Positions 4,450 to 42,630 of a DNA stretch of 64,000 nucleotides are shown piece after piece. The stretch's first letter is position 1, and each line of letters opens with the position of its first letter. Below the pieces are notes generated by a model. The model was not told the DNA's origin, did not search any database, and saw nothing but the letters and a program-made list of their open reading frames with translations. The position numbers and the translations under genes were made by a program. The DNA is from Octopus vulgaris (lineage: Eukaryota): the NCBI GenBank assembly GCA_951406725.2, contig OX597817.1, forward strand, positions 8,742,001-8,806,000, given 5' to 3'.

Positions 4450-4665
4450 TTTGGCAGATTCACTAAATAGTCTGAAAGAAAATAACGGCAATTTATTCCG
4501 GGTGTGTATGTTCTGAGTTCAAATTCCACTGAAATAAACTTTGCCTTTCATCCTTCCATGTTCGATAAATAAAATATGTTACTTGTCAGGTACTGAGATC
4601 GATATATTCACTTATGACCGCCATCTCCCGAAATATCTGGCTTTGTGCCTATGTTAAAAGCCGAT
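4450..4665 (+). mobile_element. SINE-A, degraded
   Basis: B box GAGTTCAAATTCC and GCCTTTCATCCTTCC domain. Confidence 0.7.
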
Positions 4666-4795
4666 CTTCGTCATCATCATCATCAGCAGCAGCAGCGGTA
4701 GTAGTTGTAGTAGTAATAGTAGCGACGGTGGTGTAGTGGCAGTCGTCGTTGTTGTAGAAGTTGTAATAGCAGTTTTGTTTGTTGATGTGTTAAAA

Positions 4796-6100
<1,305 letters not shown>

Positions 6101-8919: not shown

Positions 8920-9996
8920 GGGAGGCGGGAAAATATCTCGCGGTGTTTCTTTCGGCTTTTCCTGTCTGAGTTCAAATTCCGCTGAAGTCAATTTTACTTT
9001 TTTATCCTTCCAGGGTCGAGAAAATAAAGCACCTGTCAAGTACTGAGATTGATATAATCAATTAACATCTCCTCCTACCTGCCCTAAATCTGAAACAATT
9101 GGTGAGCTGGCAGAATCGTTAGGACGCCGGGCAAAATGCTTTGCGGCATTTCGTCCCCCTTCGCGTTCTGAGTTCAAATTCCGCCGAGGTCGACTCTGCA
9201 TTTTATCCTTTCGCGGTCGATGAATTAAGTACCAGTTGCGTACTGGTGTCGATCTAGTCGACTGGCCCTCTCCTCCAAAATTTTGGGCCTTGTGCCTAGA
9301 CTAGAAAAGATTATTATTATTATTATTATTATTATGAACAAAGCTGCAAGCTGGCAGAAACGTTAGCACGCCGGGCAAAATGCTTAGCGCTATTTCGTCT
9401 GCCGTTACGCTCTGAGTTCAAATTCTGCCAAGGTCGACTTTGCTTTTCATCCTTTCGGGGTCGATAAATTAAGTACCAGTTACGCACTGGTGTTGATGTA
9501 ATCAACTTAATCCCTTTGTCTGTCCTTGTTTGTCTCCTCTATGTTTAGCCCTTGTGGGCAATAAAGAAATAATTGTTTGTACGCTGGACGAAATGTTGGA
9601 CGTAGTTCGCCCCTCGCAACGTTCTGAGTTTAATTTCAGCCGAGGTAGACTTTGCCTTTCATCCTTCGGGGTCGATAAATTACGTACCAATGAAAACACT
9701 GGGGTCGATGTAATTCACTAGTCCCCTCCCCCCAAATTAGGGGCCTTGTGCCTTTAGTAGAAAGGATTCTTATTACGAGGAAAGCGGCGAGCTGGCAAAA
9801 TCGTTAGCATGCTAGACGAAATGCTTAGCGCTATTTCGCCCGTCGCTACGATCTGAGTTCAAATTCCGCCGAAGTCGACTTTGCCTTCCATCCTTTTCGG
9901 TGTCGAAAAATTAAGTACCAATGAAACACCGGGGTCGATATAATCAACTTATACCCCTCCCGCCAAATTTCAGGCCTTGCGTCTATAATAGAAAGG

Positions 9997-10064
<68 letters not shown>

Positions 10065-18603: not shown

Positions 18604-18649
18604 CCTGCGCAAGGATGACACGCAAATTCGTGAAGCGTTCCATATTTTT
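18604..18649 (+). pseudogene. U6: U6 snRNA 3' fragment (46 nt) fused to SINE-B
   Basis: CCTGCGCAAGGATGACACGCAAATTCGTGAAGCGTTCCATATTTTT matches the canonical metazoan U6 3' end as I recall it. Confidence 0.93.
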
Positions 18650-18656
18650 CTTTATG

Positions 18657-19055
18657 TAGGCGCAGGCGTGGCTGTGTGGTAAGAAGCTTGCTTTCCGATC
18701 ACATGGTTCTGGGTTCAGTCCCACTGCGTGGCACCTTGGGCAAGTGTCTTCTCCTTTAGCCTCGGGCCGACTAAAGGCTTGAATGGATTTGGTAGACGGA
18801 AACTGAAAGAAGCCCGTAATATGTGTGTGTGTGAGTGTGTGTGTTTTCATGTGCGTGTATCTTTGTGTCTGTGTTTGTCTCCCCTCCATCGCTTGACAAC
18901 CGATGACAACTTAGCAGTTCGCCAAAACTTACCGATAGAATAAGTACCAGACAGACTTACAAAGAATAAGTCCTGGGGACGATTTCTTCGTCTAAAAGGT
19001 GGTGCTCCAGCATGGCCGAAGTCAAATGACTGAAACAAGCAAAAGCATAAAAGAA
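18657..19055 (+). mobile_element. SINE-B, near full length, directly after the U6 fragment
   Basis: Same head, body and tail as 16041; small internal deletion near 18905. Confidence 0.9.
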
Positions 19056-33781: not shown

Positions 33782-34328
33782 GAGTTCTGAGTTCAAACTG
33801 TATCGAAGTTAACTATACACCACCACGCCCCACTCCATTTAGAGTCGATAGAATAAAGCACTAGTCAAGTACTGAGGCGGATGAATCGACTTACCCCTCC
33901 CCTCAAAATTACTGGTCCCGAATCGAGATTCGGAAGAACTATTGGATTCTGTCAATTTGAAAAACCGAGAGTTGGATATTATATTCATTCGGAAATTGCG
34001 TTTACGAAAACATTTAAAACATGAATTTGCCATCGCAGCAGTATTTGATGGTGTCTAGCGAATTAAGACCTTAATCCGATTCCGATGTTCGACTTATGCC
34101 GTTCCACTCAGCTGAATATCTCTGTAAATAAGTTGCAAGCTTGCAGTAAAGCTGTTGTTGTAGAGTACGATAAGAAACTAAAACAAAAGGACAAATCTAA
34201 GAAAACGCAACCACAAAAAATACCACCACCACCACAACAACAACAATTAGAACAAGAAAACACACAATTGTGAACTTTCTTTAATTCCTATCCTTCAGAA
34301 TGATGATATTATAGGAATGACAAGACTG

Positions 34329-35265
34329 CGAGATGGCAGAAACGTTAGCACACCGGGCGAAATGCTTAGCGATATTTCGTCTGCCGTTACGTTCTGAGTT
34401 CAAATTCCGCCGAGGTCGACTTTGGCTTTCATCTTTTCGGGGTCGATTAAACAAGTACCAGTTACGCACTGGGGTCGATATAATCGACTTAATCCGTTTG
34501 TCTGTCTTTGTTTGTCCCCTCTGTGTGTAGCCCCTTGTGGGTAGTAAAGAAATAGATATTTCACCCGTTGGTATGTTCTGAGTTCAAATTCCGCTGAGGA
34601 CTTTGCCTTTCATCTTTTCGGGGTCGATTAAACAAATACCAGTTACGAACTGGGGTCGATATAATCGACTTAATCCGTTTGTCTGTCCTTGTTTGTCCCC
34701 TCTGTGTTTAGCCTCTTATGGGTAGTAAAGAAATAGATATTTCACCCGTTGGTATGTTCTGAGTTCAAATTCCGCTGAGGACTTTGCCTTTCATCTTTTC
34801 TGGGTCGATTAAATAAGTACCAGTTACGCACTTGGGTCGATATAATCGACTTAATCCGTTTGTCTGTCCTTGTTTGTCCTCGCTGTGTGTAGCCCCTTGT
34901 GGGTAGTAAAGAAATAGATATTTCACCCGTTGGTATGTTCTGAGTTCAAATTCCGCTGAGGACTTTGTCTTTCATCTTTTCGGGGTCGATTAAACAAGTA
35001 CCAGTTACGCACTGGGGTCGATATAATCGACTTAATCTGTTTGTCTGTCCTTGTTTGTCCTTTCTGTGTTTAGCCCCTTGTGGGTAGTAAAGAAATAGGT
35101 ATTTCGTTTGTCTTTATGTTCTGAGCTCAAATTCCACCGAGGTCGACTTTGCCATTCATCCTTTCGGGGTGGATAAATTAAGTGCCAGTTGCGTACTGGG
35201 GTTGATCTAATCGATTGGCCCCTCCCCCAAAATTTCGGGCCTTGTGTCTAGAGTAGGAAAGGATA
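34329..35265 (+). mobile_element. SINE-A tandem multimer: one head plus five about 180-bp bodies
   Basis: AAAGAAATAG(A/G)TATTTC junction recurs at about 34547, 34727, 34909 and 35088; the last unit has the short CCCTCCCCCAAAATTTCGGGCC tail. Confidence 0.9.
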
Positions 35266-35275
35266 TTATAGATTC

Positions 35276-35376
35276 CTTCGGCTATACATATTCTAAAATT
35301 GGAACGATACGGAGAAGATAAGCATGGCCCCTGCGCAAGGATGATATGCAAATTCGTGAAGCGTTCCATATTTTTT
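35276..35376 (+). pseudogene. U6: Near-full-length U6 snRNA retrocopy fused to SINE-B
   Basis: CTTCGGC...CTAAAATTGGAACGATACGGAGAAGATAAGCATGGCCCCTGCGCAAGGATGATATGCAAATTCGTGAAGCGTTCCATATTTTTT; ACAGAGA box mutated to ACGGAGA; upstream is a SINE tail, not a type-3 Pol III promoter. Confidence 0.95.
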
Positions 35377-35377
35377 A

Positions 35378-35770
35378 TAGGCGCAGGAGTGGCTATATGG
35401 TAAGTAGTTTGCTTACCAACCACATGGTTCCGGGTTCATTCCCACTGCGTGGCACCTTGGACAAGTGTCTTCTACTAAAGACTCGGGCCGACCAAAGACT
35501 TGTGAGTGGATTTGGTAAACGGAAACTGAAAGAAACCCGTCGTATATATGTATATTTGTGTATATGTTTGTGTCTTTGTGTTTGTCCCCCCACCCCAACA
35601 TCGCTTGACAACCGATGTTGGTGTGTTTGTATCCCCGTAACTTAGCGGTTCGGCAAAAGAGACCGATAGAATAAGTACTAGGCTTACAAAAAAAAAAATA
35701 AGTCCGGTGCTCTAGCATGACCACAGCCAAATGACTGAAGCAAGTAAAAGAGAGAGAGAGAGTAAAGAGA
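35378..35770 (+). mobile_element. SINE-B, full length, directly after U6
   Basis: TAGGCGCAGGAGTGGCT head through GACTGAAGCAAGTAAAAG tail. Confidence 0.9.
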
Positions 35771-36095
35771 ATGACAGTCGGGTTGAATGAAGGAGTATTG
35801 CTCTATGATGGTTTCTGAACTATTTCTTGTTTACGAGCTTATGACGTAGAGAGAGAGAAGCTGGATTCTTTGTAACAGCCATCTTACTCTACTGATATTC
35901 ATTTCCATATCAATTACTTCTGCATCAACTGCAGCTATTATTACATCCATCTTATATCCTGCTATCGAAGTTGCATTCGAAGTGGGTTTTTTTTTTTTTT
36001 TTTCATTTTACATTTCTTTCATTTTTAGGTCACGCAGAAAGAAGCATTATCTATGTGTATACAGTAGGGAATTCTCCAATCCAACCGTTGCATCA

Positions 36096-36096
<1 letters not shown>

Positions 36097-36167
<71 letters not shown>

Positions 36168-36207
36168 ACTACTGCTACTACTACTACTACTATTACTACT
36201 ACTACTG

Positions 36208-36240
<33 letters not shown>

Positions 36241-36241
36241 T

Positions 36242-36274
<33 letters not shown>

Positions 36275-36291
36275 AACAACAACTACTACTT

Positions 36292-36344
<53 letters not shown>

Positions 36345-42047: not shown

Positions 42048-42630
42048 TATTTCTTCTGGAAGCACAAGGTCTCAGTAATTAACTGGTACTTATTTAATCG
42101 ACCCCGAAAAGATGAAAGGCAAATTGATCTCGGCGGAATTCGAACTCAAAACGTAGAGGCATACGAAATACTTATTTCTTTACTACCCACAAGGCGATAA
42201 ACACAGAGAGGACAAACAAGGACAGACACACGGATTAAGTCGATTACATCGACCCCATTGCGTAACTGGTACTTATTCAATCGACCCCGAAAGGATGAAA
42301 GGCAAAGTCGACCTCGGTGGAATTTGAACTCAGAACATAGAGGCAGACGAAATACGGCTACGCATTTCGCCCGGCGTGCTAACGTTTCTGCCAGCTCACC
42401 TAATTAATAATAATAATAATCTTTTCTACTCTAAGCACAAGGCCCTAAATTTTGGGGGAGGGGCCAATCGATTAGATCAATCCCAGTACGCAGCTGGTAC
42501 TTAATTTATCGTCCCCGAAAGGATGAAAGGTAACGTCGAACTCGGCGGAATTTGAACCCAGAACATAAAGACAGACGAAATACAGATAATCATTTTGCCC
42601 GGCGTGCTAACGATTCTGCCAGCTCGCCAA
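41800..42630 (-). mobile_element. Train of SINE-A copies (about 41800-41975, 42050-42400 dimer, 42420-42630)
   Basis: Reverse consensus repeated, separated by (AAT)n tails. Confidence 0.85.

Follow-up and report, generated by a model that had tools for sequence, protein, structure and literature searches.

A U6-headed SINE-B in Octopus vulgaris is probably one of many independent chimeric retrocopies made by reverse transcriptase template jumping

The locus lies in a 64,000-nucleotide stretch of Octopus vulgaris DNA (the window; contig OX597817.1, positions 8,742,001 to 8,806,000), where the sole Rfam match reaching the gathering score is a U6 snRNA (RF00026) at 35266-35375 (98.3 bits, E 3e-24). 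This match and our alignments agree with the initial annotation, made from the sequence alone, that about 100 nt of U6 ending in its T-run are joined to a complete SINE-B in the same sense (Table 1; SINE-A to SINE-D and T1 to T3 are working family labels). Two details of that annotation were revised: the U6 part is 4 nt longer at its 5' end, starting at 35272, and the single A described as the joint is present but is probably the first base of SINE-B itself, many free copies carrying AT before AGGCGC when read by eye. Sequence comparison revealed no promoter in front of the focal U6, and its upstream sequence is unlike the upstream regions of U6 genes. The focal unit would be dead as a mobile unit: the promoter of a U6 gene is external to the transcript, Pol III would terminate at the T-run, and transcription from the promoter of SINE-B itself would begin downstream of U6.

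Table 1. Coordinates of the focal U6+SINE-B unit, its target site and the second such unit in the window
Feature	Coordinates	Strand	Basis or remark
Second U6 piece, 5'-truncated at ~nt 62	18604..18649	+	95.7% identity over 46 nt
8-nt linker	18650..18657	+	absent from all others of the 33 joins
Full-length SINE-B, older variant	18658..19054	+	head 87.3% identical to focal head; end read from the sequence
Left target duplication copy, intact, 18 nt	34305..34322	+	in-cis record of the empty site
Older SINE-A tandem array, ~181-nt period	34323..35261	+	self-BLAST matches 34373-35264
Right target duplication of the SINE-A array, first half	35262..35271	+	split by the U6+SINE-B insert
U6 snRNA retrocopy, ~nt 3 to 3' T-run (six T)	35272..35376	+	Rfam; alignment to U6 gene copies L004, L017, L020
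Full-length SINE-B, no gap after U6	35377..35768	+	333/373 aligned bases (89.3%) identical to young copy L031
SINE-B 3' tail, two stem-loops, related to tails of two reverse transcriptase-coding LINE families	35705..35741	+	position by alignment; consensus fold of five tails from other loci
Right target duplication, second half	35769..35776	+	split by the U6+SINE-B insert

SINE-B, whose head is matched 12 times in the window, is assembled from a tRNA-type head (by eye), a CORE-like body, a microsatellite, a LINE-type tail and terminal repeats. Words in the head, picked out by eye, are presumably A- and B-box-like, and neither ARAGORN nor Rfam reported a tRNA there. Alignment to L031 places a deletion of about 22 nt in the focal copy, immediately ahead of its tail. 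The 7-nt motif named as shared in PMC5786205 is present in most SINE-B copies and carries one change in the focal copy; the octopus families OR1 and OR2 are members of the CORE-SINE superfamily (PMC4824008, PMC4758252).

The target site of the focal unit is recorded in cis, as positions 35262-35271 and 35769-35776 placed end to end are exactly 34305-34322, an 18-mer found intact once in the window. On the simplest reading, the SINE-A array would have made an 18-nt target duplication, and U6 and SINE-B would later have entered its right copy together, with little or no duplication of their own; the first bases of 35262-35271 partly resemble the usual end of a SINE-A tail, which tempers this reading. 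Taken by itself, the split duplication may also be compatible with two blunt insertions at one spot. Head-to-tail SINE-A arrays of ~181-nt units are frequent in the window (34323-35261, 4507-5995, 8942-9998 and 42073-42583), and a long (CTA)n/(CTG)n microsatellite lies 300 nt downstream of the focal unit, at 36090-36300 and beyond.

Across the genome, the exact 27-mer at the 3' end of U6 occurs 166 times, and exact joins of U6 to a SINE-B head number 33, on many chromosomes, against 39,030 exact SINE-B heads, such that about 1 in 1,000 heads (about 0.1%) is U6-headed. We classified 100 of the 166 U6 ends, the first by coordinate (C1 to mid-C12); copies without mutations are over-represented in this sample. 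In 72 of them U6 is joined to a SINE head, a SINE fragment or a ~45-nt LINE tail, all in sense and none antisense. The partners comprise SINE-B (head 21, interior 5, tail 6), other SINEs (SINE-A head 10, SINE-C head 1), short tails (T1 11, T2 7, T3 8) and 3 other repeats, the repeat library having been built from the sampled loci, so that the single SINE-C and two of the other repeats match only themselves. With internal SINE-B and other repeats set aside, 56 of the 72 partners begin at the start of a head or tail. A repeat partner is thus usual after a U6 end, but SINE-B heads account for only 21 of 100 and U6 is not tied to SINE-B. The assertion that the adjacency is hard to explain by chance was borne out: the chance of meeting a SINE-B head in sense no more than 15 nt from a given site is about 1e-4, or 1e-3 if tenfold more diverged SINE-B copies are allowed, against the 21 of 100 observed. 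Nested or tandemly repeated SINE-B heads were seen in the U6-headed copies L143, L056 and L043.

The 28 ends with no assigned partner are 8 gene-like copies (7 in one tandem cluster), 2 U6-U6 arrangements, 6 matches to AT-rich arms (one a (TA)n artefact) and 12 unclassed ends, among which one decayed T3, one LINE 3' end and two SINE-A ends were recognized by eye. The cluster (G000:C1:139.42-139.43 Mb; L020-L024, L068, L074) holds seven tandem U6 genes spaced ~1.1-1.4 kb apart, preceded by words that we take to be octamer-like and TATA-like, and at least two further U6 gene types exist (L004, L017). The U6-U6 tandem L082 was considered as proof of serial jumping and dropped, as a shared private change and an octamer-like word upstream make local duplication likelier. 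In a separate set, an antisense U6 piece is followed by a sense one to form a palindrome, flanked by long AT-rich inverted arms and mostly inside (TA)n (L094, L095, L097, L101, L110, L118, L123 and L135, around position 1500), possibly the result of fold-back copying by another element; the L135 arm also follows the T-run of a U6atac in L221 and occurs in L200 and L201 with no U6 upstream.

U6 is one of several donors. Among the 30 best U6atac matches, 24 have these same partners, joined at the points used by U6, a further 2 are joined by eye and 2 are gene-like. For 5S, 13 of 47 matches lie outside the gene array, at 12 loci; in 11 of these the partner is a SINE head or tail, and the twelfth is a 5S-5S arrangement with a piece of open reading frame; a pattern for one 5S variant recovered 8 joins. 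At least 4 of the 12 dispersed loci keep the gene trailer up to the T-run, which indicates that 5S precursors were copied. None of the 30 best U2 matches is joined, a weak control since these look like genes, and a pattern search recovered 8 U2 joins, near full length. A tRNA-CCA pattern gave 2 matches only, one of them a duplicated event with no intact CCA, which counts against jumping. Two candidate tRNA donors were set aside: at L078:1366-1570 a tRNA-Lys(CTT) abuts the 5' side of a truncated U6, after which come ~40 nt from the start of a second U6, and here the tRNA is real and the join is not clean, while the pre-tRNA-like piece in L188 reaches only E 0.2. Two composite arrangements were also seen. 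L318:300-720 is a three-part chimera running from a precursor 5S through a full SINE-D to a T1 tail, and L283/L284 contain head-to-tail 5S-5S, both with their gene trailers; behind them lies an open frame that spans at least 200 codons, has no Pfam match and resembles a Penelope-type reverse transcriptase.

The short tails T1 and T3 (7,989 and 1,485 exact copies in the genome) each form the 3' end of a LINE family; the two families are related (77% identical) and encode RVT_1. For the LINE clade Pfam and Atlas returned RVT_1 only; from their motifs the two families are presumably akin to the CR1/L2 group. The T1, T2, T3 and SINE-B tails fold as two stem-loops with 13 pairs, 3 of which show compensatory change among five sequences, and the SINE-B tail both aligns and folds with the tails of the two LINE families, as a LINE-derived tail should. 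A LINE bearing the exact SINE-B tail was not found, and the LINE-like end joined in L104 has no Pfam match. The copies of these tails break at a fixed place. In the first 30 copies of T1, the sequence stops within 14 nt of the stem in 12 and continues for at least 158 nt in 18, with no end at 15-157 nt; in 30 copies of T3, it stops within 3 nt of the stem in 8 and continues for at least 193 nt in 22. The breakpoint thus lies at the foot of the tail stem in 20 of 60 copies, and this sharp tail-only class exists with or without U6. Tail-only free SINE-B is rarer (2/63). Three of the 12 short T1 copies are tRNA-type SINE-D joined at the stem-foot point. Among 25 SINE-D copies seen, five (L156, L161, L169, L032 and L318) are cut short and carry a T1 tail at one common junction, which suggests an amplified tail swap and a candidate young SINE subfamily; one further copy (L263) is joined to a SINE-B tail. 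Other heads appear in similar positions, with L151 containing a SINE-like head that ends in a T-run and is joined to a T1 tail, and L188 and L203 (just before 1500) containing a pre-tRNA-like piece and another SINE-like head, respectively, directly 5' of SINE-B starts, with weak Rfam support.

The junctions themselves are similarly constrained. In 25 pattern-selected joins of U6 or U6atac to tails, the partner begins 0-5 nt before the stem in every case. Extra junction bases are present in up to 19 of the 25, with G rare (3/67) and the first extra base C or A; 19 is an upper figure, given that one parent context was mis-extracted and that some of these bases may instead come from the leader of the source locus, from a gene trailer or from variants of the parent subfamily. 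Across the 72 chimeras, the 5' end of U6 lies within nt 1-25 in 54 and within nt 55-80 in 18, with no end in between. In human U6, nt 55-80 form the internal stem-loop, which bears several methylations (PMC13109388), and the overlap of the second cluster with this element would fit copying from RNA. Among the U6-headed copies placed in the SINE-B tree, all 8 chimeras of the young clade have a truncated U6 compared with 4 of 15 older ones (Fisher p 0.0013, noticed post hoc).

The second unit of the window repeats the focal architecture 17 kb away, as had been annotated, with a U6 piece at 18604, an 8-nt linker and a full SINE-B. The two loci could be one local duplication or an assembly artefact, and they do lie on the same strand and closer than chance suggests: by plain arithmetic, any pair of the 33 joins would fall within 17 kb with a chance of about 0.006, in a window picked for having two, a figure that counts against independent events. 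However, their SINE heads, at 87.3% identity, are no more alike than to unrelated copies, their flanks are unrelated (local scores 20 and 19), and their linkers and U6 5' ends differ; a duplication is rejected, and the reading as a whole is extremely improbable. On a larger scale, the annotation had proposed an amplified U6+SINE unit, for example by read-through from a U6 gene into SINE-B, which would make the joins a U6-headed SINE family descended from one or a few masters. The 33 exact joins on many chromosomes and the commonest linker, which occurs 4 times, are in keeping with such a family, as is mild clustering in one of two trees. In the first tree the U6 label changes 16 times against 17.8 when shuffled (117 of 500 shuffles as low), and in the second, which leaves out L143_29 with its nested second SINE and adds the focal copy, 14 times against 17.9 (22 of 500 as low); copies with damaged tails are in neither tree, and the U6 label may be slightly clustered. 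Set against this, a single U6-headed clade was rejected for 23 U6-headed and 32 free SINE-B copies (p-AU 4.6e-13, a cost of 103 log-likelihood units), the U6-headed copies trace to three U6 gene types and fall in young as well as old SINE subfamilies, and 24 different linkers occur among the 33 joins, which are few beside the 39,030 heads. A master locus with a U6 promoter was likewise rejected, as none of the 33 upstream flanks resembles the upstream regions of four gene-like references (best score 24; one reference, L124, is only doubtfully a gene), and the T-runs of the 8 gene-like copies among the 100 sampled ends are not followed by a SINE, contrary to read-through. The SINEU families of crocodilians (Kojima 2015, PMC4494074) also carry an snRNA at the 5' end of a non-autonomous retroelement, with repeated snRNA addition, and are amplified with a common structure; Kojima regards them as true families since no abundant headless partner exists. 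The octopus unit shares the snRNA head but is polyphyletic, shows no descent from a master with a common junction and makes up ~0.1% of an abundant headless partner family, which by Kojima's argument points to independent chimeras. The amplified-family reading is already largely refuted, and we hold it to be very improbable.

If the joins are independent, U6 and its partner may have arrived separately, travelled as one ligated RNA or been linked during reverse transcription. In a two-step route a U6 copy would come first and its T-run would serve as a preferred target for a later SINE. These elements favour AT-rich sites and make little or no target duplication, such that a second insertion could be invisible; free SINE-B target duplications are rare (4/35 at 8 nt, null 9%). 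Against two separate arrivals, none of the 72 partners is antisense, the joins occur at fixed partner points, only ~4 of 30 free SINE-B heads (by eye) follow a T-run, and the gene-like U6 copies, which also have T-runs, attract no SINE. Repeats of at least 8 nt surround the whole unit in 11 of 70 cases (4% for mismatched pairs), although most of these are (TA)n tracts, and surround the partner alone in 0 of 70, so that duplications flanking only the SINE, raised in the annotation as a sign of independent insertion, were not seen; an unpositioned search at 8 nt gave 6 of 70 outer and 0 inner repeats. The enclosing duplications that the annotation had proposed to look for thus appear at some loci, with the (TA)n tracts weakening the count; a 17-nt duplication at L031 and, at the focal site, the split 18-nt duplication of the SINE-A array point the same way. 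Co-insertion of U6 and SINE-B as one unit, as read from these sequences, is supported, not closed, and the two-step route appears quite improbable.

In other species, U2 and precursor 5S end in a 3'-OH and SINE RNAs start with a 5'-triphosphate. These ends bear on ligation of U6 to its partner followed by copying as one template, the RtcB route described for human U6/L1. That route has been proven in human cells (Moldovan et al. 2019, PMC6789731), human U6 ends in the required cyclic phosphate (PMC13109388), and in both hosts the U6 T-run is joined to a retroelement with U6 and U6atac favoured; in octopus these are the commonest donors (~72% of 166 by sample, and 24/30) compared with 8 U2 joins. 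The fixed tail breakpoint could also be an RNA cleavage site leaving a 5'-OH. However, RtcB requires a donor with a cyclic phosphate and an acceptor with a 5'-OH, and it did not join a 5'-triphosphate RNA (PMC6789731), and the human chimeras, in the passages of that paper cited here, have precise joins to variably truncated L1 with no preferred site. The octopus joins instead fall at fixed sites, among them the exact SINE start with its presumed triphosphate, include U2 and precursor 5S donors with presumed 3'-OH ends, and contain extra junction bases; the precise join to a variable partner is not what we found. Searches at five loci yielded no ribozyme family at the tail or head breakpoint among 50 Rfam matches to E 1. 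Ligation therefore fits poorly if the end chemistry of other species holds here, and we consider it an unlikely source of these chimeras, though ligation and jumping could coexist. The recurrent joining that the annotation had offered as its other explanation is upheld as to recurrence, with the step placed more probably during reverse transcription than at the RNA level.

We therefore regard the focal unit as a one-off chimeric retrocopy, one of many independent ones, probably formed when a LINE reverse transcriptase jumped end to end between templates. The all-sense partners, the fixed partner points, the many donors, the independent origins and the split target favour this reading, as do the extra junction bases, which are akin to the additions made by the R2 reverse transcriptase. 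In vitro, that enzyme makes end-to-end jumps and untemplated additions, for which it favours dATP and uses pyrimidine dNTPs poorly (PMC8594491). In octopus, the LINE protein would bind the two-stem-loop tail of SINE-B RNA and prime at the target, and the reverse transcriptase would copy as far as the RNA 5' end; this end would be the start of the SINE or, where a LINE or SINE tail is copied, a strong stop lying 0-5 nt beyond the stem foot. Next the enzyme would add a few untemplated bases and jump onto a small RNA at its 3' end, in most cases an oligo(U)-ended Pol III transcript (U6, U6atac or precursor 5S) and sometimes U2. U6 would be copied to near its 5' end or to a stop at nt 55-80, matching the pattern of its 5' ends, and the unit would end up between two halves of one target, as it does at the focal locus.

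The nearest precedent is the set of U6-L2 and U6-Mon-1 chimeras of platypus and the U6-AnolisSINE2, U6-L2 and U6-RTE chimeras of Anolis (Doucet et al. 2015, PMC4476161). There too U6 precedes a piece of SINE or LINE whose mobility depends on a LINE recognizing a structured tail, U6 is often 5'-truncated, the partner is short and target duplications are short or absent, and the chimeras were attributed to template switching, as ours are. The octopus copies share with them an intact U6 3' end 5' of a retroelement, the same orientation of both parts and independent origins. They differ in having an invertebrate host (the word "invertebrate" does not occur in the main text of PMC4476161), in joins that map to the SINE start and the tail-stem foot, a mapping absent from the main-text passages of that paper cited here, and in donors that include U6atac, precursor 5S and U2. 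We found no description of U6-SINE chimeras from a cephalopod or other invertebrate in the open-access literature. The class itself is thus already known from platypus and lizard, and the focal locus is an ordinary dead retrocopy; new here are the invertebrate host, the broad donor range and a breakpoint fixed at the base of the stem in the LINE tail.

These chimeras also relate to how SINEs gain their parts. The exchange of SINE heads and tails by template switch is a model drawn from finished SINE families (PMC4824008, PMC5786205), and it shares with R2 jumping (PMC8594491) the addition of a small-RNA head to a LINE tail or SINE during reverse transcription. Where those papers treat finished families or reactions in vitro, the octopus genome holds many unfinished products and one, SINE-D with T1, that is apparently amplified. 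More broadly, and more tentatively, we propose with somewhat less than even confidence that these LINEs have a built-in stop past the 3' stem, reached in about one third of insertions, and jump from there and from SINE starts onto any U-ended Pol III RNA, the genome being a catalogue of SINE birth.

Annotation of this genome and the choice of U6 promoters should take into account that most of its U6 and U6atac matches are chimeric pseudogenes. The octopus set bears on the question of whether U6 chimeras arise by RNA ligation, as for human L1, or by reverse transcriptase jumping; where the LINE recognizes a structured tail, the junction sites and the range of donors favour jumping. The tail-stem breakpoint common to U6, U6atac, 5S, U2 and a tail-swapped SINE provides a handle on how SINEs acquire LINE tails. 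If the broader proposal is true, heads with no internal promoter (U6, U6atac, U2) would die as single copies, whereas heads with one could found families, as SINE-D appears to have done with T1, and 5S-headed copies would be waiting founders; the long-inferred model of tail acquisition would then gain a defined molecular site.
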